Shown: piece by piece, positions 1,828 to 36,475 of the stretch | Layout: each line of letters starts with the position of its first letter | Position numbering within the stretch: position 1 is the first letter of the stretch | DNA from: an uncultured Candidatus Saccharibacteria bacterium | GTDB taxonomy: Bacteria > Patescibacteriota > JAQUNI01 | DNA: 64,000 bases | Assembly (NCBI GenBank): GCA_964555185.1 | Contig: CAZKRD010000001.1 | Span: 124,265 to 188,264, forward strand | Direction: 5' to 3' | Notes under the pieces: generated by a model | The model's input: only the letters and a program-made list of their open reading frames with translations | Told to the model about the DNA's origin: nothing | The model's database searches: none | Made by a program: the position numbers and the translations under genes

Positions 1828-2172
1828 TCCTTTTCATTATTATCATTAGATTCAACAGATTCAACCTATCTATAAACTCATTTTCACTCTACAAGATAAA
1901 CATTCAAAAGTCAAGTAATGTCATTGCGAGGAGCGACCAGAGGGAGCGACGCGGCAATCTCCAAACAGCAAGAATGAACCATTTTACTGGACAGAGATTG
2001 TCGCCAATACCGGGTGACCACCCAAAGGGTGGCTTCGGTCATCTCTCGTCAAGCTCGGGTTTCCCTCGCAATCACAGAAAATAAAAAGCCAAAATGCCTT
2101 TATCTGATTTGTCAAAAAAGAATATTCTCTATCGCTTCCGGAAATTCATTTCCGTTCTTTTGTTAGTAGGTG
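1782..2172. repeat. Copy 2 of the tandem-duplicated cassette; contains the intact start of the giant gene
   Basis: See 270..662. Confidence 0.85.
1917..2074. repeat. Family-A IR miniature element (second copy)
   Basis: Identical to 408..565. Confidence 0.6.
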
Positions 2173-5100
2173 TTTTTGCTCTTTCTATTGGTTTTCATCC
2201 CTTGCAGGTTAGCGCAGATAGTGATGACGCAATAAATAAGCGCATTGAAGAGGGCGGGTCTATAGGGACTTCTAGTTTATTTCAAGATTTAGTTGTGGGT
2301 CCGATTAGTTCGTTCGGCTCTATGCTTCAGAATTTCAAATACGGCGATGTGATTAACCTTATTCTAAAAAACACCCTAAACAAGATTATTGATCGTTTCT
2401 ATGATAAGGTGATTAAAGAATTTGAGGATAAATATCGGGTTAAAGACACTCTAACCCAATGGTGGCTGCCTTATGTTAATGCTCGGTTTGATAAGTTTCA
2501 CGGCTGGGTAGGCGAGCAAGTGGGAGGCGGGATGGAAGGGCCTCTCTTAGAGGTGTTTTTAGCTTTAGAGAATACAGTCTATAAAGGGGTGGTGGATACG
2601 GGCCATTATTTAGAAAACAGGCTTTTTAAGACATTAGAGCTTCTTTTAAAAGGAACCGGCGCGATTGTCGCCAAGGAAGTCGGTATGCAGGTGGGTACTT
2701 CTAATTATTTTAATTATGGATTCAGGTCTTTGGGCACGGATGCTTTAACCATGTTTTGGAAGGGAGAGGCAAAGGTCTTAGAGATGACGCAAGAGGCAGA
2801 AAGAGACGCTTCTCTTGATTACCTTACTTCTGATGCTTTAACCAGAGGCGATCAGGTGATGAACCAGCCAGAGGGCGGATTAAATCTGGCTAAAGAGCGT
2901 GAGATCAGGAAAAATTCAAAATATAATTTTAAGGAAATAGAAGATCAGATGAGCGAATGGGCGTATGAAAACGCTGGCGTTGGCAACGATCCAGCGCGTA
3001 AATGCGCGTATGCTTTTGAGGACGGATCTGTTTATAGAGTTACTGTGGGTTCAGATAAGCTTGATGGCGGAGATTTTGGATACAGCCATGTTCCTAATGT
3101 TCAAGGACCGGGGCAATGGGACATATTTCCCTATTCAGAAAAATCAAACTGGAATGTTTTGCGAATTTGGTCTTTATTTGATGATGGTTTAGCTGATCTT
3201 GTTTATGATGAAAGCGGAAAATTCCAAAAGATATTTTATTATGGCAGTACTGGTGCCCCCCAAGAGGTTCAAAGTTATGCTATCTATAATAAAGCAGGTT
3301 TAATCAAAATCTGGTCTTGTCGTCTTAGCGGCCCAGCGCATATTAAATACAAAGATGCTGGCTTGATTGAGAATATTAATTATTACGCGGACCCTAAAGC
3401 TACCCCGCGTTCAATCACGACATTCTCTTTTTCTTCCCGTTCTGGCTCGGTAACGGGCTGGACTGGCCTGATCGAGCGTCCTGGCCAGGCAGTGAAAAAT
3501 TATTTACAGGAATTAATTAACAGTCGTTTTGAGCGGGCAAATGATGAGAGCTCTAGTTTAACCGGTTTGGGCAAGGTGATGTATGATTTGATGGACGGGT
3601 TCACGGACGCGATTCAATTTGAAACAATCATTGAAGAAAGAGAGGGCCACCCAATGTATGGCTGTCCGGTTGGTTTTGATACGAATATTGACGATCTCTG
3701 GCAGGAGATGCGGCCTTTTGGCGACAAAGAGAATCCTTCGAGTTTTGACTGTTTGATGCGGGCGGTTGGCCAGATTGGCTGGGACATCTTTCCGACTATT
3801 GCCAAATACATTGGCTGTTTAGCGGAAAAATTGCTTTGCTGGATTTTCAATATAGATTCCAAGAGCGCGGAATCGCAGACTGTTCAATATGATTATGAGA
3901 CAGAGGTTAAGGAAGAAGGAGAGTGGGGCGAGAACCGCGCTGTCGCTCTTGATGAAGCGGGAGAGCCAATCAAAAAGAGAAATACTGGCCGCTTTACGAC
4001 AGAGAGTTTTTTAAGGTTTGCTGCCCAATATTTGATTTATGTTAAGTTGATTAAGCCCCACATGCCGGATGTGAGCGGGCTCGCGGGTAGTTTTTGGGAG
4101 TGGGTTAAAAATCAAGATTGGTTCCCTGAGTGGGGTAAAAGTCTTGGTGATGCCTTAAGCACCATTCTTGAACTTGCTGATGATTTTCTTGAATCCTGGG
4201 CCTGGGGAAAGGTGATAGCCTTTGCTTTGAAATTGCTGGGATTTTGCGATGATCGGTGCGAGGACAGGGAAAGTACGCCTGTGCCCAAAAAGCCAAAGCT
4301 TAGTTGTGAAGAGATATGCCAGGAATATCCTGATTCGGTTGTTTATACGGGCAACCATTCTATTTGGCACGAAGATCCTAATAAATCCGGCACTTTTTTA
4401 CGAGACGCGATTGGCGCGGACGGAAAGGAACTGGGCCTCGAGGAAAACAAGAATGGCGCTTTAATGGCCGGGACAGATAACTATTTAGGTATTGAGATGT
4501 GTAATTGTACAGAGGATACAGCGGCTTTAGGCTGGAAGTTTTCTCTCCAGTCTGATCAGAAGGATTTTGAAAATAGTTTGGATCCTGAATACAGAGTAAC
4601 ATCTGACCCTAAAAATGAGGTCCTATTAGAAAATAGTACAATGATGGATGGGAGTACTTCTTCCTGCCAGCGGAACAATCACTGTTTGATTCCCCGTGTT
4701 GTTTCCGCGGATTCGAAAAAGGGCTGGCGAAAATTCAAAATTGAGGTGGGCGAAAAGGCAAGAACCCGCGAGGTTATTTTTTCTTTGGTTACGCATCAGA
4801 TGGCGAATTTACATGATGATCAGGGAATTTTTGAGAATATTTATTATCAAACCGTAAAAACAGACGATGAAGGAAGGGTTATTTTCAATACAAACACTAA
4901 ACTTCCTGAAATAGACTTCAAAAAGCTTGATGATCAAGAAATCAGCTTCACTCTTCCAGTTAGAACAGAGACCCTTTTCGATATTATGGCTCCGCTATAT
5001 GACAGCGATGATGAGAACAAAGGAGACCTGCCTCTTCAGAAAATTTACAGAACTGATTTAGATGAACCGCCAGTCCTTGTCTCTTATGGGCCTGATACTG

Positions 5101-8024
5101 ACTTTTACCGGCCAGGCGCGGATTATACCTGGCAGTTATATTTGCGTAATAAAATCCAAGGCGCGGCTTGGGGCAATTTACCATCGCCGCAGGCAGAGGT
5201 TGATTCTGCCTCTCAAAGGGTTTTGCAGTCTAGTCCGAGTCCGAGTCCGACTCCTACTCCTGATACCCTCCCCAGCTGTACACTTTCTGCTAATCCTTCA
5301 AGACCAGAACCTGATCATATTGTGAATTTTTCAGCTAGAGTGACGGATGAAAACAATCATATCACTGATTGGATATTTGATTATGACGATGGCGCGTGGA
5401 CAAGTGGCGAGGGCAGTCCCGGGGCCGAGGCATCCTTTAGCCATACTTACACTGTGCCGGGAGGCAGTTATACTCCTGCCTTAATACTCAATCTTGATAC
5501 TGGTCCGGGTACGGTTGGTTGTATTACAGCAGTTGATGTTATTGGCCATGGCGCCGAATACGATAGCTTATATGGCAAATTAGAAGCAGTGCCCTACGGT
5601 ACAGAGAGTCAGGAAATGATTGATCGCTGTGTTCAGGGGATTAGCGTGGAGGATGCTCCTTTTCCAGATGATTATCCTGACAGGATTATGTTTATGCATA
5701 TGGGCAGGTATCAGCCTTCCGGCGCCGCTAATGCTATGATGCATGAAATCAGAGCTTATCAAGAAGAATGGCTAGAGAATTATAGGTATGAACATCCGCC
5801 AACAATGGCGCAGTATATGTTTAAGGCTAATTTAAAACTCAACGCGTTAGGACCGAATGTTGCTTTCCCGGGTATGCGCGATGAAATTTTTGAGGAGCTT
5901 GACACCGAATTTGGATATGGACCCACAGAAAATGTAATGAAGACCCAAGAATGGAAAGACTCTGTATATCAAGCATGGGAAGAAACCCTTACGGTTTATA
6001 GGATAACAGCAGGCGGCAGTCTGACCCCGATTACCAGGGACGAATTTGACTATATTCTTTCGATGATGACTGGCGATGTGGCTATGGGAGTGGTAACGGG
6101 CATTGGCCTTTTTCGCCCCAACATTGGTCAGGCCCTAGGGGCGATTCAGCTGCTTGGAAGGGGCTTAAAGTGGGTAATAAATAAGGTTGGAGGGGATTCT
6201 ACGAGCAGGCTTAGTTCGGAAATAGGAAAGGCCGGCCCTAGACAGCAAGTTTTAGATTTTGATCACAGTCAAAACCTTAATATTAACACGCATCGGGGCA
6301 AGTTTAAGATTGAGCTTAAGAACGATGACGATGAATTCTGCAACGGTAAGGTTATTCCTTTTATGCTTTATTTGTATAAAAATAAAGAGAAACGCCCGAT
6401 CAGCGCTCTTCCCTATAACTGGCTAATCGGCGAGCCGGAAGAGCCGACCCCAACTCCGACCCCATCCCCATCCCCAACTCCATCCCCATCCCCAACTCCG
6501 ACCCCATCCCCAACCCCTCCAAGCAATCCACTTGAGTTTGTGAAGTGTGAGGTTTATAAGGACGAGTGCCATCCTGACCGTGCATTAGAAGGTATTTGCA
6601 CAAATAATAATGGCATGATTGAGCCGGCAGAGACAGTTACTCTCAAGGTATATCTTAAAAATAAAACTGGAGGGTTTATAGAAAGCGAGGTGACTTTTAC
6701 TTCTATGAATCTCCCTAGTGAAGTTTGCGTGGGCATTTCACCTGGTGATGGCTCTTGTCCTGGCTTTTTGAACCAAACTTATTATCTTGACGGCGGCGCG
6801 ATTTTTGGTCATCGCTATCCATTTGCTGTTTCGAAATATTATAGCAAATCCTACTTGACTTTTCGTTTGCTCGGTGATATTGAAGGCAGCGGCGGCCAGC
6901 GCGCGATTGATGAGCAATTTATTGTAAATTTATATAGATCAGACAATGTCTGTGTATGGGGCCCTGATCCATCGCCAACACCGACGCCAACACCGACGCC
7001 AACCCCTCCTTCAGGGTACCCTGATTTAGTCGTGAAGCCTGGCGAGGAGTTTGGGTATAGGATGAAAAATGACAAAGATGGCAGTGGCGGAGTAACTGTT
7101 GGCGACGAAGTTGAGGTGTGGTTTAGGGTTACAAATCAAGGAACAGAGGATATGGACTCAGGAGATAAATGGGATATAAAACTGTATTCGCGTTATGGCA
7201 GTGGTAATTTTGATCATTTTAGGACATATACGGACCAGAGTCCGCTTGATGCTCCTAGCGGGAGCAGCTGGGATACTGTAGTAGTTTATTACTTCCCTAT
7301 TTTCGAGATCAGAGAGTCAAAAGATGTTTGTTTTGCCTTAAAAATAGATTCTGGTGATGATGTTGACGAGGGTTCTAGTGGAGAGAGAAATAATGAACCT
7401 GGCTTTAGCTCGCCTTATTACTGCATTCCGGTAGGCAGTACTCCGACTCCGACTCCTCCGGAGGTGAAGAAGGATGCTAAGATGAAAGAGGTGAACCTTG
7501 ATTCCGTAAAGGAGTCATCTCAAGGGGGTTCCTACACCTTTGATGCCGACTATACAATTGTCAATAATAGCCAGCCTCCGGATACGGCGATCGGCGGCGG
7601 AAGTGATGACTTTTACCGCAAGCCTACTTTAATGAAAGTGGATATTGGTAGAAAAGCCAGTGATTATAGTAAGACTGGGTGCTTCAAAGAGCTTGAGAAG
7701 CTTACTAATTATTCGAATAATAATAGAATAACGCGTTTGGATGAAAACGGCGATACCCAGTTTGTAAACTTTAATGATCAAGTTTATGGGCCTTGGGAAA
7801 GTGCTAGTTACCAAGTGAAGGCCGAGGTGTGGCACAAGTATGATGGAGATGATGATACCAGTAATAATATTTTATGTTCTGATCCGTTGAATATTTATAT
7901 AGGACCGTTACCGGCAGCCAATCCAGACAGTGAGCAGTCTATTGCCGGCGTAGCTCAAGAATTAACTTTAAGACAAAGAATCAAGCGGGTGTGGGATTAT
8001 GTTATAGACAAAGTCAAAAGATAA
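2094..8024 (+). CDS. Giant secreted or surface protein (1976 aa) with Pro-Thr/Pro-Ser linkers and PKD-like/CARDB-like segments
   Basis: Uninterrupted 5.9 kb ORF with an N-terminal hydrophobic anchor (ISVLLLVGVFALSIGF). Low-complexity linkers PSPSPTPTP, PTPTPSPSPTPSPSPTPTPSPTP, PSPTPTPTPTP. A PKD-like stretch (VNFSARVTDENNHITDWIFDYDDGAWTSGEG...SFSHTYTVPGGSYTPALILN) and a CARDB-like stretch (PDLVVKPGE...GDEVEVWFRVTNQGTEDM). Confidence 0.8.
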   Translation: MPLSDLSKKNILYRFRKFISVLLLVGVFALSIGFHPLQVSADSDDAINKRIEEGGSIGTSSLFQDLVVGPISSFGSMLQNFKYGDVINLILKNTLNKIIDRFYDKVIKEFEDKYRVKDTLTQWWLPYVNARFDKFHGWVGEQVGGGMEGPLLEVFLALENTVYKGVVDTGHYLENRLFKTLELLLKGTGAIVAKEVGMQVGTSNYFNYGFRSLGTDALTMFWKGEAKVLEMTQEAERDASLDYLTSDALTRGDQVMNQPEGGLNLAKEREIRKNSKYNFKEIEDQMSEWAYENAGVGNDPARKCAYAFEDGSVYRVTVGSDKLDGGDFGYSHVPNVQGPGQWDIFPYSEKSNWNVLRIWSLFDDGLADLVYDESGKFQKIFYYGSTGAPQEVQSYAIYNKAGLIKIWSCRLSGPAHIKYKDAGLIENINYYADPKATPRSITTFSFSSRSGSVTGWTGLIERPGQAVKNYLQELINSRFERANDESSSLTGLGKVMYDLMDGFTDAIQFETIIEEREGHPMYGCPVGFDTNIDDLWQEMRPFGDKENPSSFDCLMRAVGQIGWDIFPTIAKYIGCLAEKLLCWIFNIDSKSAESQTVQYDYETEVKEEGEWGENRAVALDEAGEPIKKRNTGRFTTESFLRFAAQYLIYVKLIKPHMPDVSGLAGSFWEWVKNQDWFPEWGKSLGDALSTILELADDFLESWAWGKVIAFALKLLGFCDDRCEDRESTPVPKKPKLSCEEICQEYPDSVVYTGNHSIWHEDPNKSGTFLRDAIGADGKELGLEENKNGALMAGTDNYLGIEMCNCTEDTAALGWKFSLQSDQKDFENSLDPEYRVTSDPKNEVLLENSTMMDGSTSSCQRNNHCLIPRVVSADSKKGWRKFKIEVGEKARTREVIFSLVTHQMANLHDDQGIFENIYYQTVKTDDEGRVIFNTNTKLPEIDFKKLDDQEISFTLPVRTETLFDIMAPLYDSDDENKGDLPLQKIYRTDLDEPPVLVSYGPDTDFYRPGADYTWQLYLRNKIQGAAWGNLPSPQAEVDSASQRVLQSSPSPSPTPTPDTLPSCTLSANPSRPEPDHIVNFSARVTDENNHITDWIFDYDDGAWTSGEGSPGAEASFSHTYTVPGGSYTPALILNLDTGPGTVGCITAVDVIGHGAEYDSLYGKLEAVPYGTESQEMIDRCVQGISVEDAPFPDDYPDRIMFMHMGRYQPSGAANAMMHEIRAYQEEWLENYRYEHPPTMAQYMFKANLKLNALGPNVAFPGMRDEIFEELDTEFGYGPTENVMKTQEWKDSVYQAWEETLTVYRITAGGSLTPITRDEFDYILSMMTGDVAMGVVTGIGLFRPNIGQALGAIQLLGRGLKWVINKVGGDSTSRLSSEIGKAGPRQQVLDFDHSQNLNINTHRGKFKIELKNDDDEFCNGKVIPFMLYLYKNKEKRPISALPYNWLIGEPEEPTPTPTPSPSPTPSPSPTPTPSPTPPSNPLEFVKCEVYKDECHPDRALEGICTNNNGMIEPAETVTLKVYLKNKTGGFIESEVTFTSMNLPSEVCVGISPGDGSCPGFLNQTYYLDGGAIFGHRYPFAVSKYYSKSYLTFRLLGDIEGSGGQRAIDEQFIVNLYRSDNVCVWGPDPSPTPTPTPTPTPPSGYPDLVVKPGEEFGYRMKNDKDGSGGVTVGDEVEVWFRVTNQGTEDMDSGDKWDIKLYSRYGSGNFDHFRTYTDQSPLDAPSGSSWDTVVVYYFPIFEIRESKDVCFALKIDSGDDVDEGSSGERNNEPGFSSPYYCIPVGSTPTPTPPEVKKDAKMKEVNLDSVKESSQGGSYTFDADYTIVNNSQPPDTAIGGGSDDFYRKPTLMKVDIGRKASDYSKTGCFKELEKLTNYSNNNRITRLDENGDTQFVNFNDQVYGPWESASYQVKAEVWHKYDGDDDTSNNILCSDPLNIYIGPLPAANPDSEQSIAGVAQELTLRQRIKRVWDYVIDKVKR

Positions 8025-8258: not shown

Positions 8259-8806
8259 ATGCAAGGAAAGTTATGTCGTCGTCGTTCCATTAGATTGCCA
8301 GCATATAATTATTCTCAAGCCGGATATTATTTTGTGACGATTTGCACCCAGAATTTTTGGTGTTGTTTGGGAGAAGTTATTGCTGGGGAGATGAAACTAT
8401 CCGAAGCAGGGCATATGATTGATCAGAAATGGCAGGGATTAAAGAATAAATTTAAAAACATCAGGTTAGATCGATATCAGATTATGCCAAATCATTTCCA
8501 TGGGATTATTGTCATTACCCGTACAAAAATCGTCCCAGACTAGGTGATATTATTGGTGCATTTAAATCGATAACAACCTATAGATATATCCAAAATGTCA
8601 AAAGTAAAAACTGGCCTCGGTTTCACAAGCGTTTCTGGCAGCGCAACTATTACGAACACATCATCAAAACCGAAGAGTCCCTAAACCAATTCCGTGAATA
8701 TATTAAGAAGAACCCAGTACATTGGGAGAGTGACAGGAATAATCCTGATAATGTTAAGGTGAAATATTCCGCAAAAATTAAAACACAATGCGTAAAAATA
8801 AGTTAA
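8259..8806 (+). pseudogene. REP-associated tyrosine transposase (RAYT / IS200-IS605 TnpA family), frameshifted
   Basis: Part 1 (8259..8543): RRRSIRLPAYNYSQAGYYFVTICT...QIMPNHFHGIIVI (HxH motif). Part 2 is in another frame to 8806: RLGDIIGAFKSITTYRYIQ...RFWQRNYYEHIIKTEESL..YIKKNPVHWESD (catalytic Tyr region). The frames switch at the A5 run 8525-8529; six A's would restore one ORF of about 185 aa. Confidence 0.7.
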
Positions 8807-11800
8807 AAATATTTGCTCTGCTCGCTTTTATCCTGATCGGCGTGTTTTGGGGTGTGGGAAGGGTCGCGAAGGTTCAGGCGGAGAATCTGGTGGAGTGCAA
8901 ACGGAAAGCCTCTGTAGCAGCAACAGCATCATATTGGACAAAGGGTGATGTAAAGTGTGATTTAGATCAGAATCAGATTTGTGCCTACTATTCGGAATGG
9001 GGTAGCTTGGGATGGTATCCTAAAGAGATATGTAAAAAATTAGTTGAGGCCCGACATTGCTTAGGAGAAGACCCTGACTGTAATACAGATTTTGAAGGCG
9101 CTTTATTTGGAGGCGATGTAGAGAATGTTAAAATGAGAGAAGGGATTGAAACTGTGCCAGCTTATTATATGAGTGATAAGGATTATAAAATTGGCTGTCA
9201 GCAAGGGTTTTCGCCTGCTTCAACTGGCGATCATGAGAGGGCAATAGGTGTTGGTTTGGGGAGGAGGTCTGCTGAAATCTATCAATGCTTAGAGGAAACC
9301 GACCCCGGGGTTTATCAGGATGCTTGCGGCGATGGCAGAGGCGTACATAAAGAAGGGGATCAAATCATACCCACGGCTTGTGTAAGCTCTGATAAGCAAT
9401 GCGTGCCTCAGACCAAAGACGGACAATATGTATTCTTCGCGATTGCTAATAGAACGCTAACGCGCGAACAGGAATGGGTTGATGTTGGTAATCCATCGAG
9501 AGTCGTTATAAAACCAGGAAGCAAGGCTTATTGTTATGATACTTATCAAGAGATAGATTCTGCTAATTGTTATTTAGAAGCAGATAAAGACTTAATAGAT
9601 AAAGATTCTCCTGGCAGAAAGATTACCCCTAGCATAAACGCTGTTTATGGCGCAATAGTTGGTCAGAACGTTAAAGAATATTTTAGGCCGCATTATGAAT
9701 GTGAAGAAGGGGGCAGTGCATTTTGGCAGATATTCAACAGCACAATCGGCGTAGCATTGACCACGATTTTTGGCCTTATTGCCTCGGTTATTATTTTTAT
9801 TCTTGGCGCTGTGTTTTGGCTCGTTACCGCTTTTTTGGAATGGGTAATGGGGATTAGTAAGATAGAGGTAGGGATTATTGATATTGTTTGGGAGTTTTTG
9901 CGTGATTTTTCCAATATGTTCTTTATTATCATCCTGCTCTATATTGCTTTCTGTACGGTTTTGCGCATCCAGAGCCAGAATATTAAAAAAGCCCTGCCCT
10001 GGTTTATGTTTTCTGTCATCCTGATCAATTTTTCTCAAGTGATTTGTCAGATAGTGCTTGATTTTTCCCAGATTTTGATTGACGGCATTTATTACTTAAT
10101 GCCCGGGAACTGGTGGGGGCGGGTAAATTTTGTTTTGCATGCCGGGGGCATGGATGAATGGATGAATGTCAGGACTGTTTTTGGCAGTAGAAAGTTAAAT
10201 GATTTTGTCGGCGTAATCGGGGCGCAGGGTTTGAGTATTCTTTATATGGTGGCGTCCGTGATTGTTTTTGGCGCGACTGCTTTTCTTTTGGCAATCCGGA
10301 TTGTGGTTTTGTGGATTATGACCGCGATTTCGCCGCTTATTTATGTCGCGATGGCTGTTGGCAACAAGGGCATTGTCAAAAAGTACTGGATCAGTTTCTT
10401 GCGCACAGCCTTTTTCGCGCCAGTAATGATTTTTTGTATTGTCATCTCCATTGTTATTTTAAGCTATGATTTGGATGATTATTTAAAGTCAGAAGTGGGT
10501 ACAGTAGAACAGGTTTTAAGTGAAGAAGCAACTCAAGGAAATATTGTCACCGAAGCCGGCTCATTCCAGAATTTTATCCAACTGATTTTCGCCCTTGCTT
10601 TTATGTGTACTGGGCTTGTTGTCGCGCGCAAAGGCAGTGTGATCGGCGCTGACGGGGTAGTTAAAGGGGCGATGAAGCTTGGCAAGATGACTGCGCCCTG
10701 GATCACGGGTGTTAAACCGGCTGGCCATGGCGTGAAAGCGCTGGCTGGCTATGGCTGGCGTCAGGCCTTGAAGAGCCGGGCCGGGAAATATTTGAAGGTT
10801 GTCAGTCCCACGGTTTGGAAAAGAGCAACCAAGGCGCGCCGCGAGCGCGTGATGGAAGAAACTTTTGTCCCGCGCGCTGCCGAACTACAGCCAAGGCTCG
10901 CCGGCTGGCATGCTTTTTGGCACGGCGGCGGTCCTGCCTATGAGATGGAGAAGAAGAGAGCGGATAGTGCTAAAAGGAAATTAGCCAAAGATGAAGGCGA
11001 TAGGTTGACTCAGACTGATGAGCCATCAGAGTCTTTTATTGGCGTAATGAAAGTAGCCTTAGATCAAGCTAAGGAGCGGGGTGATCTTGGTTCGATTCGT
11101 GCGCTAACCCCTCTTGTTGAAGGAGCGCTCCGCACGGCGGGAATAGCGCGCGGCGACTGGAATGATGTCTTAAAGAGTAAATTTCTTAAAGAATCGGGAT
11201 ATGGCATTCAAAGAGCGACAACCGGCGCTGATGTTAGGATGTTTAAACAGCTTTTCGGCGATGACCCAGAGGCAATTCAAGTTTTAAACAGTTTGGCCGA
11301 GTCTTCCAAATCCAAATACACCCACCTTGCTTACGCTACCTATTTTGATGAAGAACAAGGCAAGCTGATCTATGGTATTGATAGAAAGGCGACAAGGTCG
11401 GAGATGAAAAGTGAGTTAGAAAAGTTAAATAAAAGAAGATTGAAAGCAGGCGAACAGGAGATGGAATTTGATGATTTCTATGAAGAGATTATTGAAAACT
11501 TAGGACAGGTTGACTCAACTGTTCGAGAAAATAAGCGGCTTCAGCAATTAGGTATGGCCGATGAGGTAGCCAATATAATCAAATTCTATAATAATGACCG
11601 CTCTAAAACAATTCTGGGTGAATTGGCGAAGAAAAGCCCTAAGGATAAATGGACAGTTAATCCAGGCGCGTTTGCCGCGGAAATCGGTGGGGGCTACACA
11701 GACCCTGAGACTGGTGAGTGGCATAAATATTATGGCGAGACAGCTTCAACAGAAGCCTATGTTGAAAGTGCAACCATGGCCGACGCAACAAGAATCGACA

Positions 11801-12159
11801 GCTGGGCTCCTCCGCGCATGCGCAAGGCCATTCTTGGTAATGAAAAAATGGTGAATAAAGTTCTTGAAGGGATAGAAACAAAGAGAAGAAAGGAGAAAAA
11901 AGATGAACTTGAGCAAGCAAAGGCTGTAGGTAACAGAGAAGAAGTAGAGAGAATTGAAAATTATATTACGGAACAAAGAGTAGTTTGGAACGCATTGTAT
12001 AGGAAGCTTAAGATAAAAGAGAAAACTGTTGTTGATGGAACCAAAAAGCAAACTGTTGTTGATGGAACCGAGGACGAGACAACAAGAACAGAGGAAGACG
12101 AAGCAGATGCTGCTGAAGATGCAGCTGCAGCTGCTGAAGAGGAAACAGAAGGAACTTAA
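8788..12159 (+). CDS. VirB6/TrbL-like polytopic membrane protein with Cys-rich N-terminal ectodomain and a ~400-aa C-terminal module (1123 aa)
   Basis: Signal/TM (IFALLAFILIGVFWGV), a Cys-rich region, then 6-8 predicted TM helices at aa 300-620 (IGVALTTIFGLIASVIIFILGAVFWLV..., ILYMVASVIVFGATAFLLAIRIVVLWIMTAISPLIYVAMAV...). It lies immediately upstream of the VirB3-like/VirB4 genes. The C-terminal part (nt ~10944..12156) is paralogous to 13434..14618. Confidence 0.5.
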   Translation: MRKNKLKIFALLAFILIGVFWGVGRVAKVQAENLVECKRKASVAATASYWTKGDVKCDLDQNQICAYYSEWGSLGWYPKEICKKLVEARHCLGEDPDCNTDFEGALFGGDVENVKMREGIETVPAYYMSDKDYKIGCQQGFSPASTGDHERAIGVGLGRRSAEIYQCLEETDPGVYQDACGDGRGVHKEGDQIIPTACVSSDKQCVPQTKDGQYVFFAIANRTLTREQEWVDVGNPSRVVIKPGSKAYCYDTYQEIDSANCYLEADKDLIDKDSPGRKITPSINAVYGAIVGQNVKEYFRPHYECEEGGSAFWQIFNSTIGVALTTIFGLIASVIIFILGAVFWLVTAFLEWVMGISKIEVGIIDIVWEFLRDFSNMFFIIILLYIAFCTVLRIQSQNIKKALPWFMFSVILINFSQVICQIVLDFSQILIDGIYYLMPGNWWGRVNFVLHAGGMDEWMNVRTVFGSRKLNDFVGVIGAQGLSILYMVASVIVFGATAFLLAIRIVVLWIMTAISPLIYVAMAVGNKGIVKKYWISFLRTAFFAPVMIFCIVISIVILSYDLDDYLKSEVGTVEQVLSEEATQGNIVTEAGSFQNFIQLIFALAFMCTGLVVARKGSVIGADGVVKGAMKLGKMTAPWITGVKPAGHGVKALAGYGWRQALKSRAGKYLKVVSPTVWKRATKARRERVMEETFVPRAAELQPRLAGWHAFWHGGGPAYEMEKKRADSAKRKLAKDEGDRLTQTDEPSESFIGVMKVALDQAKERGDLGSIRALTPLVEGALRTAGIARGDWNDVLKSKFLKESGYGIQRATTGADVRMFKQLFGDDPEAIQVLNSLAESSKSKYTHLAYATYFDEEQGKLIYGIDRKATRSEMKSELEKLNKRRLKAGEQEMEFDDFYEEIIENLGQVDSTVRENKRLQQLGMADEVANIIKFYNNDRSKTILGELAKKSPKDKWTVNPGAFAAEIGGGYTDPETGEWHKYYGETASTEAYVESATMADATRIDSWAPPRMRKAILGNEKMVNKVLEGIETKRRKEKKDELEQAKAVGNREEVERIENYITEQRVVWNALYRKLKIKEKTVVDGTKKQTVVDGTEDETTRTEEDEADAAEDAAAAAEEETEGT

Positions 12160-12186
12160 AAATTTAAGACAAATATAATTTGATCC

Positions 12187-13374
12187 ATGGATCAGGATTT
12201 AAATAATTTAAAAGTACAAGATTTAAGCCGGCAAGAGGTAGTGAACAAGATTCAAGCCAAGGTTAGTTTTATTATCCGCTTTGCTGACGATGATCAGGCT
12301 TGGCCTCTTTCTTTGGCTTTAAGGAGGATTCGCAAACAGAAGGATAAGGCCTTAACCCCCGAGCTTTTAGAGCGGCTAAAGCTGTGGTCAGTTTTAGTGG
12401 ATTATGTTTGTTTTCCGGCGCAAACCGAAGAGAGGACAATCGAAATCTTCCGAGATCATATGAAGGAAGTGTTGAGTTTGGAGCGGGACACGGTTATGGG
12501 CGGTTTGGAAAGCAAGCTGTGGGCTGATCCTGCCGGCCCTCGCGAGGAGCTGGGCGTCAAGCTGATTGGGGCTTTGAAGGCAAACAGGCAAAAGCTTGGA
12601 GATTTGACCTTGGGCGAATGGATTGCCACTTTTATCCATAGTTACCCCAATGTTCCTAATCTGGCTGATTTTGAAGAACGGAATTTTTTGAACAAAAACA
12701 AACAAGCGCGCGCTCTTGACCCCAAAGGCAGAGAGATTCTAGCTAAGCTTTTAAAGGTTTATGATCTCTTGCGTCCTTTAGAGGCGGGCAATTATTATTT
12801 CCAAGCGCTGGCGCAAGGCAAAGACTTGTTCGTCGAAGAAGAAAAGCAGGTAAGACTGGGTCGGGCCTTAGGCAGGACAGCGCGGCTCCAAGACGGTAGA
12901 GCTGGAGTGCGGAGTTTTCAGGATATTCGGACCCAGGGCAAGAGTCCGCGCGTTCCTCCCAGGGCGCCGCGGGGAGTGGGACAAGGAAGCAGGCCCGTTC
13001 CGCTCGGGCAAGGCCAAGGCCAAGTCTCCCCAAGGGCGGCGACTACCCAAGGGATTAATCCGCCGCCAAGGGTTCCAGTTTTGCCCCCTGATTTTAAGAT
13101 TAAGCCCCGGCTGGAAATCGAAAAACCAACCAAGCCTTCTTTTCAAAATCAAATATCTCCTAAATCCGAGCAGGTTCCGAGTCCTTCAAGCCAAGTTGAA
13201 CCAGAAACCCCTCGGGAAGCGGGCGCTTTGACTGTTGGCGAGCTGGAGAGAGCGGCCCAGAGAGGCGATCCGGTCGAAGAAGAGAGGCTGCGGAAAATGA
13301 TCCGTCAGGGTTTTAACAAGCTCTCGCCAGAAGCGCGCCAATATGTTAGCAACAGTCCCTTTTGGGCAGAGTAG
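12187..13374 (+). CDS. Hypothetical protein with Pro/Gly/Gln-rich low-complexity region
   Basis: 395-aa ORF, no recognisable motif. Contains PRVPPRAPRGVGQGSRPVPLGQGQGQVSPR. Confidence 0.55.
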   Translation: MDQDLNNLKVQDLSRQEVVNKIQAKVSFIIRFADDDQAWPLSLALRRIRKQKDKALTPELLERLKLWSVLVDYVCFPAQTEERTIEIFRDHMKEVLSLERDTVMGGLESKLWADPAGPREELGVKLIGALKANRQKLGDLTLGEWIATFIHSYPNVPNLADFEERNFLNKNKQARALDPKGREILAKLLKVYDLLRPLEAGNYYFQALAQGKDLFVEEEKQVRLGRALGRTARLQDGRAGVRSFQDIRTQGKSPRVPPRAPRGVGQGSRPVPLGQGQGQVSPRAATTQGINPPPRVPVLPPDFKIKPRLEIEKPTKPSFQNQISPKSEQVPSPSSQVEPETPREAGALTVGELERAAQRGDPVEEERLRKMIRQGFNKLSPEARQYVSNSPFWAE

Positions 13375-14621
13375 TATTTATTTTAAAATTTCAAATGAGA
13401 AGAGAAAATTCAGGAAAAAATTTTGCTTATGGAATGGAACGGAAAAGAGCAGATGTTTCTAAAAGGCAGTTAGCAAAAAATGAAGCCAAAACACTGCTAG
13501 AATCAGATGAACCAACCGAGTCTATTGTTTATATTTTAAAACAGGAATTAGAACGGCTTGAAAAGAAAGGGCTTCTTGGCACAGACCAAGCTTTAACCCC
13601 TTTAGCAGAGGGAGCAATGCGTGCAGCGGCTTCCCGCGGGGATTGGAATAATGTTTTGAGAAGCGATCTTCTAAAAAGATACGACTATGGTACTCAAAAG
13701 GCAAGTACGGGCGCTGATGTTAGGATGTTTAAGAAACTTTTTGGCGATAGTTCAGAAGCAATTCAGGTTTTAAACAGTTTAGCTGAATCCTCTAAAGCCG
13801 AGTACACCCATTTGGCTTATGCCACTTATTATGATGGAGAAGAGAGTAGGTTAAAATACAGCATAGATAGAAAAGAATACTTAGATTCAATGGAAGAGCA
13901 AAGGGTGAAAATGAATAAAAAGAGAAGAAAAGCTGGACAAGAGGAGATTTCAAGGGATGATTTTTATAATCTAGTTATTGATAATTTAGGAGAAGTGGAC
14001 GCGGAGATTAGACAGAAGAATGAGTTAAAGAAGGAAAATGTTGCTGAAGGAATAGCTGAAGTGATTAAGCTTTATAATAAAGATCGGGGTGATGCGATTA
14101 TGGCTGAATTGGCAAAAAAGGATCCTAAAGCTAAATGGAAGGTTAACCCGGGCGTATTTGCCGCGGAAATTGGCGGCGGTTATTGGGAGTTGAATCCCGA
14201 AACAGGCAAAGAGGAATATGTTGCTAAATACTATGGCGAAACAGCATCATCTCGGGCTTATATTGAGAGCGCGACCACGGCGGACGCGGAAAGAATAGAC
14301 AGTTGGGCTTCTCCGCGCATGCGCAGAGCTATTCTTGATAATAGGAAAATGGTGAATAACATCCTTGAAAGAATAGAAAACGAGAAAAGAGAGGAAGCTA
14401 AGAAAGCAAGGATTTCGGGAAATGCAGAAGAAGTAAGGAGACTTGAAGACTATGCTAACAAAAAGAGGGTAATTTGGAATCGTATATATGAAAAACTTGA
14501 GATATCACAAAGCAAGGACGGTAATGCTGGTACTGGTTTCATCGATAGAGAGGGAAAAGCTCAAGTTGTGGCTGAAGATGATGAGGCCGCAGTAGCCAAA
14601 GAAGAAACAGGGGGGACTTAA
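13362..14621 (+). CDS. Stand-alone paralog of the C-terminal module of the VirB6-like protein
   Basis: MERKRADVSKRQLAKNE...STGADVRMFKKLFGDSSEAIQVLNSLAESSKAEYTHLAYATYYD...KWKVNPGVFAAEIGGGY...DSWASPRMRRAIL...EETGGT versus MEKKRADSAKRKLAKDE...TGADVRMFKQLFGDDPEAIQVLNSLAESSKSKYTHLAYATYFD...DSWAPPRMRKAIL...EETEGT. Nucleotide identity is high in blocks. The true start may be ATG 13434. Confidence 0.7.
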   Translation: MGRVVFILKFQMRRENSGKNFAYGMERKRADVSKRQLAKNEAKTLLESDEPTESIVYILKQELERLEKKGLLGTDQALTPLAEGAMRAAASRGDWNNVLRSDLLKRYDYGTQKASTGADVRMFKKLFGDSSEAIQVLNSLAESSKAEYTHLAYATYYDGEESRLKYSIDRKEYLDSMEEQRVKMNKKRRKAGQEEISRDDFYNLVIDNLGEVDAEIRQKNELKKENVAEGIAEVIKLYNKDRGDAIMAELAKKDPKAKWKVNPGVFAAEIGGGYWELNPETGKEEYVAKYYGETASSRAYIESATTADAERIDSWASPRMRRAILDNRKMVNNILERIENEKREEAKKARISGNAEEVRRLEDYANKKRVIWNRIYEKLEISQSKDGNAGTGFIDREGKAQVVAEDDEAAVAKEETGGT

Positions 14622-14632: not shown

Positions 14633-15772
14633 ATGACTAATTTTTCTAAGAAAATTCTTCCAATTGCCGCTTCTCAAGAAACAGCGTCAAAGTTAGCTCA
14701 GATTGCTGAACGTTTTTCATTATCCCGCGAACAGCGGAATCTTCAGGCGCGGATTTTGAGTAAGCTTTTGACCGCGGAAATCGGCCCGGAAGACTTGGCG
14801 CGCGTTTTAAGGATTAATCTTAATTTGAATGAGCAAAAAGCCAATACTCTTGCGCGCGCCATCCAGAAAGAGGTATTGGCGGGTTTAGATACCGGCGGCG
14901 GTTCTAAAAGGAGAAAGAAAATAAGAAAAAATAGGCAAAGACCGAAAAAGACAAGACCGGAGAAAAAGGGAAAATCAGAGCAGGCAAAGTTTAGCGCTCA
15001 AGAATTAAGAGCATGGTTTGATCGTCTTGTCAGGGATTTCAATTTGAATTTATCAGAGCTTCAGACCTCTCGTTTAGAGAGCGCGGCTTTGACCTATCTC
15101 AAAGATGTCCGTGATGAGATCGAAACCGAAAATGTTTTGTACCGCTCCCAGAACGAAGGAGGAGTTGGTTTGGCTGTTCCAGAGGCCGTAAAGATTACCC
15201 GCCGTCTAATAGAAGACTTCCCGGAAGAGGAGAAAAACGGGATCCGCAAGTCTTTCCATCCCAGAAGATCCGCAAGAGAAAGGGAAAAGCCGCCAGAGAA
15301 GCCCTTCCCGCCAGAAAGTCTCCGAGCAACTCAACCAATCGAGAGACCAAAAGCTATCGCGCCAGAGGGAGCCCGCCTAATCTCTGATGTGATTGGAGCG
15401 CCGCCTCGCCTTTCCCAGAGACCAAAACAGAAAAAGAGGGGCTTGTCTATTTCTGATTTAAGCCAGATTGCTCAACTAAAAGATTTGAGCATTGAGGCCT
15501 TTAAGAGAAAGCGGGCCGCGCAAGTCGTCAGCGAATTTCAGAATAAAATTAACGCCCTGGTGGGCAAAGATGAAGCGAAAAGAATGCAGAGCATTGAGGC
15601 TTGGCGCCAGTGCGAACCTTATCAGCTATACATTATGATCGGCGAAGAAAGCATTGGCCAGGGCAAGACCGTAGCCGAAGTAGCCCGCGAGAGAGCAAGA
15701 CAGAACAAGCCTTATTTAACCGAGGAGGAATTCAATGCGGTCGCGGATGTGAGCCGCGAGTTTCAATACTAA
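14633..15772 (+). CDS. Hypothetical soluble basic protein (379 aa)
   Basis: ORF tightly packed after 13362..14621 (11-bp gap). Lys/Arg-rich tract GGGSKRRKKIRKNRQRPKKTRPEKKGK. No TM. Confidence 0.55.
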   Translation: MTNFSKKILPIAASQETASKLAQIAERFSLSREQRNLQARILSKLLTAEIGPEDLARVLRINLNLNEQKANTLARAIQKEVLAGLDTGGGSKRRKKIRKNRQRPKKTRPEKKGKSEQAKFSAQELRAWFDRLVRDFNLNLSELQTSRLESAALTYLKDVRDEIETENVLYRSQNEGGVGLAVPEAVKITRRLIEDFPEEEKNGIRKSFHPRRSAREREKPPEKPFPPESLRATQPIERPKAIAPEGARLISDVIGAPPRLSQRPKQKKRGLSISDLSQIAQLKDLSIEAFKRKRAAQVVSEFQNKINALVGKDEAKRMQSIEAWRQCEPYQLYIMIGEESIGQGKTVAEVARERARQNKPYLTEEEFNAVADVSREFQY

Positions 15773-16402: not shown

Positions 16403-17155
16403 ATGCCCCCCAAACAAAAACCTAAAAATAAAACTAATCCCAAGGAGAATAAGAAGTCCAAAGGCCGTTTTTTCAGTCTCCATTCCAAAAAGCTGACCGC
16501 GGGCAAGCCCAAGAAAACCACCCAGCAATTTTTGGATATTGTTGGGATCAGGGATAATACAGTGGTGCTTCGCGACGGCACTCTGCGCGCGATTATCATG
16601 GTTTCCAGTATGAATTTTTCTTTGAAGGGCCAAGAAGAGCAGAACTCCATTATCTATAGTTATCAAAGTCTTTTGAATGCTCTGAATTTTCCTATCCAGT
16701 TTGTGATTCAGTCTCGAGAATTGAATATTGAGTCCTATCTTAAAAATTTGGAAGAGCTAGAAGCAAAGCAAACGAATGAGCTTTTAAGGATTCAGACCAT
16801 AGAATACCGCGAGTACGTGAGCGAACTTGTTGAGTGGGGCCAGATTATGCGCAAACGTTTTTACATAGTCGTATCCTATGCTTTGGTGGAAGCCAAGGAA
16901 GAAAGTATGCTGTCCAAATTCAGAGCGATTGTGCGGCCGGCGGAGATTGTGCGGCAAAAGGAAAAAGACTTCTTAAGATACAAAAGTCTTTTGGATCAGA
17001 GAGTGGCGCGTATGGACGGTCTCCTAAATTCAATCGGCTTAAAGAGCGTACGTTTGAATACACAGGAATTAATTGAGCTGTTCTATAACGTCTACAATCC
17101 GTTTGTTTCTAGAACTCAGCCCTTAGCTGATGTTAAGAAACTTAATATTGTCTAG
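16403..17155 (+). CDS. VirB4/TraE-family N-terminal domain encoded as a separate ORF
   Basis: QFLDIVGIRDNTVVLRDGTLRAIIMVSSMNFSLKGQEEQNSIIYSYQSLLNALNFPIQFVIQS...RFYIVVSY matches the pattern of the extreme N-terminus of Gram-positive-type VirB4 proteins. Same frame as 17177..19117, separated by TAG (17153-5) and TAA (17159-61). Confidence 0.5.
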   Translation: MPPKQKPKNKTNPKENKKSKGRFFSLHSKKLTAGKPKKTTQQFLDIVGIRDNTVVLRDGTLRAIIMVSSMNFSLKGQEEQNSIIYSYQSLLNALNFPIQFVIQSRELNIESYLKNLEELEAKQTNELLRIQTIEYREYVSELVEWGQIMRKRFYIVVSYALVEAKEESMLSKFRAIVRPAEIVRQKEKDFLRYKSLLDQRVARMDGLLNSIGLKSVRLNTQELIELFYNVYNPFVSRTQPLADVKKLNIV

Positions 17156-17176: not shown

Positions 17177-19117
17177 ATGCCTAATCCAAAAAACAACAAA
17201 GCCAAAAAAGAGTCAAGGGGTAAGCCCATTTTAGAAATTGTTGGTCCTGGCGCGTCCTCCAGGCTGGGTTTAACCCAAGAAGAGAAGGTAAGAGTTCTTG
17301 AGGCGCAGAAAGATTATTTAGAAGGCATCGCCACAATCAGAGACTTAATCGCGCCAGCGGCGATGAAGATTGACTCCCGTTATGTGCAGATTGGAGACTA
17401 TTTTGCGCGCACTCTTTTTATCTTCACTTATCCGCGTTATCTGCATACCGATTGGTTCTCGCCCGTGATTAATATGGACGCGGTTTTTGATGTAGCGATG
17501 TTTGTTTATCCTCAAAGTTCAGCTTCAGTTTTAAAGCGCCTGACTAAAAGCGCGGCCCAAATTTCTTCCTCTATTTCAATGGAGCGGGAAAAAGGCAAGG
17601 TCAGAAGCCCGATGCTTGAGACCGCGCATAGGGATGTTGAGTCATTACGAGATGCCTTGCAGCAGGGTACAGAGCGATTATTTAAATTCGCTCTCTATAT
17701 AACCATTTATGGGACTTCCTTAAAACATCTCGACAAAAATACAAAAAGGGTGGAAGTCTTGCTGGGCACTCGCTTGATCTATGCTAAGCATGCTATTTTC
17801 CAAAGCGAGCAGGGATTTAACTCTACTCTGCCGCTTGCCAATGACGAGCTTTTTATTGTTAACAATTTGAATACTTCGCCTTTGTCCACCAGCTTCCCTT
17901 TTGTTTCTTATGAGCTTTCTTCTAATGAAGGAATTCTTTACGGTGTTAATCGCCATAATAACAGCTTGATTCTTTTTGACCGTTTTTCTTTGGAAAATGC
18001 TAATAGCGTGGTTTTTGGCAAATCAGGCGCGGGTAAGAGCTATGCGATTAAGCTTGAAATTTTGCGGAGCTTAATGTTGGGAACCGATGTTTTGGTGATT
18101 GATCCGGAGAATGAGTATAAGCACCTGGCCAGCGCGGTAGGGGGGGCCTTTTTGCAGATTTCTCTGTCCTCACCCCATCGGATTAATCCTTTTGATTTGA
18201 CCTTGGTCTCGCGCGCATCCAAGCCCGAGGACATTTTAAGAGAGGCAGTGATAAGTCTAAAGGGGCTTTTGAGATTAATTTTAAGCGGAGTTAGTCCAGA
18301 GGAAGACGCACTTTTAGATGAAGCGGTGATGCAGACCTATGCTTCCAAAGGGATTACCCCTGAAACTTCCTGGGAGGGCCGGGCAATGCCCACGATGGAT
18401 GACTTTGAACGGATCCTGCAGAGTATGGAAGGGACCGACAGTATGGTCCAGATTTTAAGCAAGTTTACCAAAGGAACCTTTGCCGGCATCTTTAATCAGC
18501 CGACTAATCTTACTATGGATAGGCAGTTCGTGGTTTTCAGTATTCGTGATTTGGAGGATGAGCTCCGGCCGATCGGGATGTATGTGGTTTTAAATTACAT
18601 TTGGAATATCGTTCGCGCGGAATTAAAGAGAAGGGTTTTGGTGGTGGACGAGGCCTGGTGGATGATGGAGCACGAGGACTCGGCCCAGTTCCTGTTTTCA
18701 ATCGCGAAAAGGGCGCGCAAGTATTATTTAGGATTGACTACGATCAGCCAGGATGTTAATGACTTCTTGGCTTCTCGCCACGGCCAGGCGATCGTGACCA
18801 ACTCTTCAATTCAGCTCCTTCTGCGCCAGTCTCCGGCCTCGATTGATCTAGTCGCTTCCGTTTTTCACCTCACCCAGGAGGAAAAGTATCTGCTTTTGGC
18901 TTCGGACGTGGGAGAGGGAATTTTCTTCGCCGGCAATAAGCACGTGGCGATCAAGATTGTCGCTTCTTATTCTGAAGACCAGATCATTACCTCTGATCCC
19001 AAGCAGCTGATTGAGATCGCGAAAGCGAAAGAGGAGTTTGCGAGAGTGAACAATCAAGAAAACGAGGCAGCGGAAGAGAGAGACGATTCAGAGCAAGGGG
19101 CAAGTAACACTATTTGA
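17177..19117 (+). CDS. virB4: VirB4/TraC/CagE-family T4SS ATPase (646 aa)
   Basis: LIAPAAMKIDSRYVQIGDYFARTLFIFTYPRY... then YGVNRHNNSLILFDRFSLENANSVVFGKSGAGKSYAIK (Walker A), VLVIDPENEYKHLASAVGG, and VLVVDEAWWMM (Walker B, DEAW). Confidence 0.85.
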   Translation: MPNPKNNKAKKESRGKPILEIVGPGASSRLGLTQEEKVRVLEAQKDYLEGIATIRDLIAPAAMKIDSRYVQIGDYFARTLFIFTYPRYLHTDWFSPVINMDAVFDVAMFVYPQSSASVLKRLTKSAAQISSSISMEREKGKVRSPMLETAHRDVESLRDALQQGTERLFKFALYITIYGTSLKHLDKNTKRVEVLLGTRLIYAKHAIFQSEQGFNSTLPLANDELFIVNNLNTSPLSTSFPFVSYELSSNEGILYGVNRHNNSLILFDRFSLENANSVVFGKSGAGKSYAIKLEILRSLMLGTDVLVIDPENEYKHLASAVGGAFLQISLSSPHRINPFDLTLVSRASKPEDILREAVISLKGLLRLILSGVSPEEDALLDEAVMQTYASKGITPETSWEGRAMPTMDDFERILQSMEGTDSMVQILSKFTKGTFAGIFNQPTNLTMDRQFVVFSIRDLEDELRPIGMYVVLNYIWNIVRAELKRRVLVVDEAWWMMEHEDSAQFLFSIAKRARKYYLGLTTISQDVNDFLASRHGQAIVTNSSIQLLLRQSPASIDLVASVFHLTQEEKYLLLASDVGEGIFFAGNKHVAIKIVASYSEDQIITSDPKQLIEIAKAKEEFARVNNQENEAAEERDDSEQGASNTI

Positions 19118-31852: not shown

Positions 31853-32011
31853 CTATTAGCGAGGAGCGACCAGAGGGAGCGACAAAGCAATCTCATAAAC
31901 AGCAAAAATAAGCCATTTTTATTTCTTGGAGATTGCCTGCCTGCCGCCTGCCTGCCGGTAGGCAGGGTGGGCAGGCTTCGGTCGAGCAGTAGCCCTCTCT
32001 CGCAATGACAT
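31853..32011. repeat. Family-A IR miniature element without cargo (degenerate left end)
   Basis: 'tattagcgaggagcgaccagagggagcgacaaagcaatctc ... gagattgcctgcctgccgcctgcctgccggtaggcagggtgggcaggcttcggtcgagcagtagccctctctcgcaatgacat'. Confidence 0.55.
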
Positions 32012-32150
32012 TTTGCGAATTTTCGAATTCACGATATTGAGGCTTGCTTTTTTGAATCAGTTTAGTATAATACAGAGAAGTTCTTTTTGACAAAATATGT
32101 TTAGATTTTTAATTATCTTTGTAGTGGTTCTTCTACAAAAGGAGGTTGTG

Positions 32151-32474
32151 ATGCCAAAAGCATTAGCGCGATATCAACCTGGCTTAGAGGTTGAGATGAG
32201 TTGCTATCAATCTGGATGTGAAGATGTGTCGATTCCTGTGACTCTGGGCGGCGAATTCCCAGTTCATCCAGATTTTGTAGTCACATATAGCCTTGGAAGC
32301 ATGCATCGGGATGAGGGGACGGCAGCGAAGGGTTTCTCACTGAGTGAGCGTTTTGGCGGTTCGGGCTACTGCAAGTGCCCAGGATGTAATACTTTGTTTG
32401 GAGCAGTCGTGATCATTTCCAATGGGAGCGGCAAACCGGCTTCAATCTTTGGTTATAGTCCGGAGCCCGCATAA
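32151..32474 (+). CDS. Hypothetical small protein (107 aa)
   Basis: Strong RBS 'aaaggagg' 7 nt before ATG 32151: MPKALARYQPGLEVEMSCYQSGCEDV...CKCPGCNTLFG. No known motif. Confidence 0.4.
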   Translation: MPKALARYQPGLEVEMSCYQSGCEDVSIPVTLGGEFPVHPDFVVTYSLGSMHRDEGTAAKGFSLSERFGGSGYCKCPGCNTLFGAVVIISNGSGKPASIFGYSPEPA

Positions 32475-35248: not shown

Positions 35249-35264
35249 AAATAGTCTTAAGTGA

Positions 35265-36470: not shown

Positions 36471-36475
36471 AAAAT

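Follow-up and report, generated by a model that had tools for sequence, protein, structure and literature searches.

Members of the VirB6/TrbL group that carry large central or C-proximal hydrophilic domains have been described as extended-VirB6 proteins (Alvarez-Martinez & Christie, 2009, as cited in PMC12857230), and a 2025 review states that the function of these hydrophilic domains "is not yet known" (PMC12857230). In Patescibacteria, type IV secretion systems (T4SSs) belong to a monoderm, MPF-FATA-like type consisting of VirB4, TrsD, PrgI, VirB6, and a VirB2-like protein, usually without a relaxase and with the type IV coupling protein (T4CP) encoded elsewhere (Quinonero-Coronel et al, 2025, PMC12102498). 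They are essential for the epibiotic lifestyle of these bacteria, and their substrates and cytoplasmic machinery are not known (PMC12102498). Here, we analyze a T4SS locus in a 64,000-nucleotide stretch of contig CAZKRD010000001.1 (hereafter, the window), which is part of a 706,972-bp scaffold of an uncultivated, ultra-small bacterium and has its named relatives in Patescibacteria and Candidatus Doudnabacteria. The VirB6-like protein of this locus ends in a module of about 400 residues, which is also encoded as a separate, free gene nearby. Comparison of related loci demonstrates, at the sequence level, that this hitherto undescribed domain of a predicted channel subunit and its free paralog in the same apparent operon are conserved and that free copies have been generated repeatedly.

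A C-terminal module of a VirB6-like protein has a free paralog

The two proteins and their parts are as follows:

8788–12159, plus strand: extended VirB6-like T4SS channel subunit, 1123 residues, made up of a signal peptide, an ectodomain rich in Cys, a polytopic core, a basic linker, and the C-terminal module
8788–8877, plus strand: N-terminal signal peptide or anchor, residues 1–30 (...VAKVQA/E cut), hydrophobic at 4–30 and followed by an AxA-like site
8878–9729, plus strand: Cys-rich extracellular domain, residues 31–314 (284 residues), with 14 Cys, hypervariable between strains
9730–10638, plus strand: polytopic membrane core, residues 315–617, recognized by hydropathy, with conserved W..RD..NMFF and NFS motifs
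10639–10923, plus strand: basic linker, residues 618–712, with 18 K/R versus 5 D/E in the window protein
10924–12159, plus strand: tethered module, residues 713–1123, matching profile positions 1–453, without Cys and ending in the acidic tail ...AAEEETEGT
13395–14621, plus strand: free module copy, 408 residues, without a transmembrane (TM) segment, signal peptide, or Cys

Comparison of the 1123-residue product of 8788..12159 with the product of 13362..14621 by BLASTP yielded one collinear alignment between residues 713–1123 of the fused copy and 18–419 of the free copy (223/416 identical, 54%; 71% positives; E=8e-142); beyond this block, no segment of the pair scored better than E=9.6. The alignment bears out the collinear homology that a preliminary description of the sequence had proposed by eye, and all the peptide blocks quoted there fall within it (TGADVRMFK.LFGD..EAIQVLNSLAESSK..YTHLAYATY.D, KW.VNPG.FAAEIGGGY, YYGETAS..AY.ESAT.ADA.RIDSWA.PRMR.AIL, and the terminal EETEGT/EETGGT). 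The DNA of the two copies is collinear as well, with 64% identity across aligned codons. Of two nucleotide blocks put forward as shared, the 23-nt GGCGCTGATGTTAGGATGTTTAA is the same in both copies, whereas a single base sets the two versions of the other apart (fused copy, CAAGTTTTAAACAGTTT; free copy, CAGGTTTTAAACAGTTT). Low-complexity similarity, named at the outset as the way in which the homology might fail, can be ruled out, as the 416-residue alignment is collinear, carries conserved motifs all along, and covers helices and two beta-hairpins with 14 invariant positions. An assembly or gene-calling artefact is likewise ruled out: the same layout is found in independent assemblies (the window and the related loci L003 and L001), and copies in a second arrangement (type B, see below) occur on three more contigs.

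The free gene lies two genes downstream of its relative, as first described (VirB6-like gene, gene for a 395-residue protein, free copy). Its start is likely the ATG at 13395 rather than the TTG at 13362: the ATG is the start in the gene calls of public assemblies and in orthologs, and the maximal open reading frame (ORF) from the TTG (419 residues) would overlap the end of the upstream gene. Contrary to the preliminary description, the module does not directly follow the last TM helix of the VirB6-like protein; the helix ends near residue 617 and the homology begins at about 713 (nucleotide 10924), leaving a linker of about 95 residues in between. This linker can be aligned only among fused forms and, in part, in the free copy of L014, and is missing from the free copy of the window. 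The gene at 13395..14621 is a paralog derived from duplication of the module only, without the membrane core and linker. Its product has a maximal 19-residue hydropathy of 0.38, and its AlphaFold2 (AF2) model has a predicted local distance difference test score (pLDDT) of 73.7 and a predicted template modelling score of 0.71. The predicted fold of the module is mostly helical with two beta-hairpins and spans about 330–400 residues. The C-terminal end is conserved between the window paralogs (...EETEGT/...EETGGT) although it lies in a disordered, low-pLDDT tail.

The carrier is an extended-VirB6 class member by architecture, locus, and fold, while its membership in Pfam TrbL by sequence is only transitive. 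Its core comprises six to seven hydrophobic segments within residues 315–617 by hydropathy, against the five or more helices that characterize VirB6/TrbL proteins, and six long helices in the AF2 model (pLDDT ~85–90), with a fold similar to that of a solved VirB6. Seven core columns are invariant across 43 homologs (W368, N376, M377, F379, N414, F415, and S416), and the same homologs share a P...A.A consensus in the signal peptide region. In keeping with the definition of extended-VirB6 proteins, the core is flanked by a 284-residue N-terminal ectodomain and a 506-residue C-terminal hydrophilic region (linker plus module). A Pfam scan of the window protein gave no match at E<=0.1; 4 of the 43 homologs linked to it by phmmer match PF04610 (best E=3.6e-6), and precomputed PF19590/PF04610 matches are recorded for the proteins P0009, P0015, and P0038.

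The module is a rare orphan domain

No significant match to the module was found in Pfam, NCBIfam, or PHROGs, and a profile built from eight modules retrieved no chain from the PDB at E<=10. When the free copy was used to query a word-indexed protein search, the results were limited to the protein and a single ortholog, without the fused copies; an exhaustive profile search was used instead. In this search of 1.84 billion cluster representatives, the same eight-module profile recovered just 10 proteins, all below 1e-30, and the gap between 1e-30 and 1e-3 was empty. DNA-pattern scans that covered 185,579 species-representative genomes together with Joint Genome Institute metagenomes returned only the known loci plus a single new one, L014. 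Compared with solved structures, including R388 TrwI and Legionella DotA, the module alone produced generic helical-hairpin matches only. The Walker A/B motifs and FtsK/HerA-like fold of the P-loop NTPases VirD4 and TcpA were not found in it, and the Pfam, NCBIfam, and PDB profile searches detected no nucleotide-binding or other recognizable motif. The module is a rare, sharply bounded orphan domain with no described family or fold, and these searches uphold the initial impression that it belonged to no recognized family.

Other VirB6-like proteins of Patescibacteria also have long tails (189–725 residues), but these do not align meaningfully to the module (7–15% identity). In three such loci, we found neither a module match at E<=10 nor a free paralog of the protein's own tail within 10 kb; the combination of fused and free tails was thus not seen as a general feature in the three loci examined. 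A partial fused VirB6-like protein labelled 'Candidatus Hodarchaeota archaeon' (P0047, MFX0204180.1) comes from a partial 2.6-kb contig and is most likely a binning error, that is, a Patescibacteria fragment.

Free copies are conserved and arose more than once

The fused module is present in every module-bearing lineage (the window, L003, L004, L005, L007, L011, L014, P0008, P0046, and P0052), and, judging from these sequences, the fused form is ancestral. Free copies occur in the following arrangements:

Type A (window, L003, L001): VirB6-like gene, 395-residue protein, free copy, 379-residue protein
Type B (L014, L011, L010): VirB6-like gene, free copy, 395-residue protein, 379-residue protein
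Lone copy (L009): free copy, contig of 4.8 kb without visible T4SS genes

No free copy was detected in L005 and L007, even by a six-frame hidden Markov model scan. The free proteins span 324–482 residues and are devoid of Cys; those covering the region start at profile position 44, with the exception of the L014 copy, which keeps part of the linker.

In neighbour-joining trees of the module and the VirB6 core (200 bootstraps), type-A free copies are sister to the fused modules of their own clade (100% bootstrap), type-B free copies form a separate clade (100% bootstrap), and the L009 free copy joins the fused L011 module (100% bootstrap). On the basis of these placements, free copies arose independently at least twice, and probably three times, in different lineages. 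Since type-B loci fall on both sides of the VirB6-core tree, the type-B duplication is old. A single ancient duplication followed by whole-length conversion is formally conceivable. Recent gene conversion or concerted evolution is unsupported: paralog identity is equal within and between genomes (0.55–0.57), synonymous divergence (dS) between paralogs is saturated (1.7–2.7), and no clear conversion tract was seen. Nor was there a convincing window-level signal of the window's free copy being a mosaic that draws on the old type-B lineage. The L009 copy itself (P0050, 564–2012; 482 residues) is 73% identical to the L011 fused module from the same sample, lies beside an unrelated 605-residue membrane protein, and may represent a dispersed third copy.

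For the window set against L003, the free copy has a ratio of nonsynonymous to synonymous divergence (dN/dS) of 0.40 and the fused module one of 0.24, compared with 0.14 for the membrane core plus linker (residues 315–712) and 0.06 for VirB4. By these estimates, both copies are under purifying selection, with the free copy less constrained. An alignment of 18 family members contains 14 invariant and 20 near-invariant positions; no column in it separates fused from free modules, and all conserved residues are common to both. The invariant residues include E131, K134, D147, Y227, E238, K241, R308, and N316 (free-copy numbering).

The module is placed on the cytoplasmic side

The preliminary description had left the module as cytoplasmic or periplasmic. 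Of these two, the cytoplasm is favoured by the predicted positive-inside pattern, the lack of Cys in the modules, and the soluble nature of the free copies. Across the 43 homologs, the segment after the last TM helix (618–680) has a mean net charge of +7.6 and is positive in 43/43, which assigns it to the inside, and the remainder of the linker (681–712) averages +3.5. The loop before the last TM helix (560–592) is on average negative (−2.0; negative in 81%), as expected for an outside position, and loops 520–532 (+1.1; positive in 70%) and 392–401 (+1.5; positive in 84%) are assigned to the inside. Cys residues are absent from every fused module, as opposed to 14–16 in the ectodomains, and the free copies contain neither a hydrophobic segment nor a signal peptide.

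One observation speaks against this placement: counted literally, the six core helices of the AF2 model put the C-terminus outside. The conflict is limited to a hydrophobic stretch of 43 residues (315–357), which may cross the membrane twice. The parity of the TM helices is the weakest link in the cytoplasmic placement.

The free copy is embedded in a Patescibacteria-type T4SS locus

The genes downstream of the VirB6-like gene, apart from the free copy, are:

12187–13374, plus strand: 395-residue soluble protein, conserved next to the VirB6-like gene, in which a Pro-rich linker joins conserved N- and C-terminal domains
14633–15772, plus strand: 379-residue soluble protein, a conserved neighbour with orthologs in L003, L005, L007, L014 and, distantly, L016
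15789–16205, plus strand: PrgI/VirB3-like protein (Pfam PF12666, E=3.7e-8)
16403–17155, plus strand: TrsD/TraC-like protein resembling the N-terminal part of VirB4 (NCBIfam TrsD, E=3.5e-7; N-terminal region of VirB4_plasma, E=1.5e-11; PF26593 TraC-like)
17177–19117, plus strand: VirB4 ATPase of the CD1110 family (NCBIfam NF045971, E=1.1e-107; Pfam P-loop_TraG)

The genes from the VirB6-like gene to PrgI are separated by gaps of 11–27 nt without a terminator-like site and therefore look like one operon. A promoter and terminator scan gave counts not above chance, and no promoter signal beyond the chance level was specific to the free copy. The genes for PrgI, the TrsD-like protein, and VirB4 lie 3.6–5 kb downstream of the VirB6-like gene on the same strand, an order that is also found in L003, L005, L007, L016, and L017. 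A weak T4SS-pilin-like ORF further downstream (T4SS_pilin, E=0.0015) is a VirB2-like candidate. Judged by this gene set (a monoderm-type VirB4, separate TrsD, PrgI/VirB3, and VirB6, and a VirB2-like candidate), its chromosomal location, and its named relatives, the system is of the Patescibacteria type. No T4CP (VirD4) or relaxase was found among the window ORFs scanned. VirB4 is split: the TrsD/TraC-like protein (250 residues, 16403–17155) precedes a 646-residue VirB4 that matches only positions 185–734 of the CD1110 model.

Orthologs of the 395-residue protein occur in L003, L004, L005, L007, L010, L011, and L014, and it has no family match in Pfam, NCBIfam, or PHROGs. In both this and the 379-residue protein, conserved terminal domains are bridged by a Pro/Lys-rich linker. 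Some further T4SS loci of Patescibacteria have distant relatives, of the 379 family in L016 (E=2.8e-18) and of the 395 family in L018 (E=2.9e-7). Remote homology of the module with either protein, or of the two proteins with each other, was rejected, with an hhalign probability below 1% in each pair (0.2% for the module versus the 395-residue protein).

Upstream of the VirB6-like gene lies a gene for a 1976-residue Cys-rich surface protein (2094–8024), for which a PKD match was weak and below threshold. This protein is 60% identical between the window and L003 and the VirB6 ectodomain (8878–9729) 49% identical (dS 1.4); by contrast, the VirB6 core plus linker (residues 315–712) is 92% and VirB4 97% identical. 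Such hypervariability of surface parts between close relatives points to diversifying selection, or to an exchange of alleles, at surfaces in contact with the host. The locus also includes a gene for a DsbA-like thioredoxin (23430–24272), in keeping with the abundance of Cys in the exported domains (the VirB6 ectodomain has 14 and the giant protein 28). A 94-residue ORF (8259–8543; '...PNHFHGII...') that lies after the giant protein and before the VirB6-like gene resembles, by eye, a truncated IS200/REP-type Y1 transposase; it had no Pfam match at E<=0.001.

Small '23S_rRNA_IVP' genes (PF05635) are found at varying intergenic points of related loci (L005, 14900–15175; L008, 12658–12870; L017, 11840–12247), including the junction at which the window clade has its free module. 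These junctions seem permissive for insertions. About 20 kb downstream of the T4SS, a type IV pilus cluster (PilM, PilB with an MshEN domain, PilT-like, and PilC) occupies 42562–47896. A low-GC stretch at ~32000–38650 (0.29–0.36 versus ~0.43 elsewhere) ends at a large serine recombinase gene (37385–38650), which adjoins a tRNA-Ser gene (38849–38939); it may be an integrated element, although a seryl-tRNA synthetase gene (32882–34177) lies inside.

Possible roles of the free copy

We tentatively favour a reading in which a cytoplasmic platform lies under the channel and the free copy belongs to it as an extra subunit without a tether, co-assembling with the tethered form. The tethered modules would hang under the VirB6 oligomer on their basic linkers of ~95 residues and make up a platform for docking or assembly at the machine's cytoplasmic side, with VirB3, TrsD, VirB4, and possibly the 395- and 379-residue proteins as neighbours. 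The free copy, bearing the same conserved surface, would join this platform as an extra subunit, so that the modules per channel would exceed one per VirB6 protomer, and selection for the extra dosage would explain the repeated creation and retention of free copies. Because the free copy shares the conserved surface and lies in the middle of a structural operon, its site of action is most likely that of the tethered domain, and the short intergenic gaps without a terminator-like site fit co-expression as structural parts.

Several observations weigh against this proposal. The higher dN/dS of the free copy could mean relaxed or altered function. Type-B free copies end earlier, without the last long helix and the acidic tail; therefore, the two forms are not necessarily equivalent. 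The L005 and L007 lineages manage without a free copy, which is therefore not essential to the machine. Finally, the conserved charged and aromatic residues (E131, K134, D147, Y227, E238, K241, and R308 in free-copy numbering) could equally mark a ligand-binding or catalytic site instead of an interface between proteins.

A different role, which we regard as unlikely, is that of a shuttle: by analogy with the paralogous NG domains of SRP54/Ffh and FtsY, the free copy would bind a cargo or partner in the cytosol and hand it to the tethered copy through a homotypic, pseudo-symmetric contact, standing in for a coupling protein. The window ORFs checked contain neither VirD4/T4CP nor a relaxase, T4CP genes of Patescibacteria are rarely near virB4, and T4CP is non-essential in S. 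epibionticum (PMC12102498), all of which would suit such a pair, as would the retention of the same conserved residues in both forms and the repeated gain of free copies. On the other side stand the lack of a nucleotide-binding or other recognizable motif in the module, the lineages missing a free copy, and the fact that nothing marks a 'cargo-binding' or a 'receptor' version. The full form of this idea, in which tethered and free copies would make up a homotypic carrier/receptor targeting pair in the manner of SRP54/FtsY and recruit substrates to Patescibacteria T4SSs without a dedicated coupling protein, is a long shot; if true, it would be a previously unknown principle of substrate selection for type IV secretion, arisen in one lineage of the candidate phyla radiation and reinforced by repeated 'domain liberation'.

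Quite unlikely, in our estimate, is a regulator or decoy: the free copy would tune or gate the machine by vying with the tethered domain for a partner common to both, such as VirB4/TrsD or the 395- and 379-residue proteins. An identical conserved surface, the higher dN/dS of the free form, and its dispensability in some lineages would agree with this, but a position amid structural genes, with gaps of 11–27 nt and without a separate promoter signal beyond the chance level, would be unusual for a regulator, and an inhibitor gained repeatedly and independently is less easily explained. We consider it very improbable that the T4SS takes the free copy as a substrate or effector, or that the module is extracytoplasmic with the shared acidic tail as an export signal. 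The conserved extreme C-terminus of the window paralogs within its disordered tail and the literal helix count of the AF2 core point in this direction; against it, type-B free copies wholly lack the tail, the positive-inside signal is strong, and the module is free of Cys while both exported domains are Cys-rich and a DsbA-like gene is present. We also know of no precedent for a channel subunit that carries a copy of its own substrate, which counts against the substrate reading. Highly doubtful, too, is that the duplicates are largely redundant and transiently kept, with no specific role for the free form. The absence of free copies from L005 and L007, the relaxed dN/dS, and the L009 copy outside a visible T4SS context would be in line with redundancy, but the ORF is intact and retains all invariant residues despite saturated paralog dS, type-B free copies are conserved in lineages on both sides of the VirB6-core tree, and small, streamlined genomes (a scaffold of ~0.7 Mb here) rarely keep useless genes.

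Whichever role applies, the naturally freed, soluble, Cys-free domain is a ready construct for expression, structure determination, and the mapping of interactions with VirB4, TrsD, and the 395- and 379-residue proteins. Loci of types A and B, set beside those without a free copy, offer natural with/without comparisons, and the repeated appearance of free copies is evidence that module dosage or the untethered form is selected. The family is tiny, belongs to very narrow uncultivated lineages, and its function is inferred; it nonetheless provides a handle on the acknowledged question of what extended-VirB6 domains do, in a T4SS that is essential in cultivated Patescibacteria.

Comparison with known systems

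The window protein shares with described extended-VirB6 proteins a polytopic VirB6-like core followed by a large C-proximal hydrophilic domain in a T4SS locus. It differs from them in that this domain has no detectable sequence or fold relative outside ~10 clusters and in that a paralogous gene for it lies separately in the same operon; in the literature searched, we found no report of a tethered domain with a separately encoded free copy for VirB6. The locus has the same gene set and order as the MPF-FATA-like T4SSs of Patescibacteria and is, like them, chromosomal with no relaxase nearby (PMC12102498; Wang et al, 2023, for transposon sequencing in S. epibionticum). The C-terminal module of VirB6, its free paralog, and the 395- and 379-residue proteins are not described in the former survey (PMC12102498).

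Unlike the window protein, the R388 VirB6 protein TrwI has no C-terminal cytoplasmic domain of 400 residues. TcpH, encoded by the Clostridium perfringens plasmid pCW3, is likewise a VirB6-like protein of a Gram-positive, monoderm T4SS; it has numerous TM helices and ends in a soluble cytoplasmic region of considerable size. None of our library searches picked up homology to TcpH, and no free paralog of its tail is known to us. A domain that exists both tethered and free is familiar from SctQ of the type III secretion sorting platform (cf. FliM/FliN), the C-terminal domain of which is also made as free SctQ-C and co-assembles with the full-length protein on the cytoplasmic face. SctQ-C is produced by internal translation initiation within the same gene and has a beta-rich SpoA fold, and SctQ is not a membrane protein, whereas the free module described here is encoded by a separate gene 1.2 kb downstream and is predicted to be mostly helical. 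Because of these differences, the comparison is one of logic only, and not of fold or genetic mechanism; in that sense, the pair of SctQ and SctQ-C appears to be the nearest functional analogy to the tethered and free modules of this locus.

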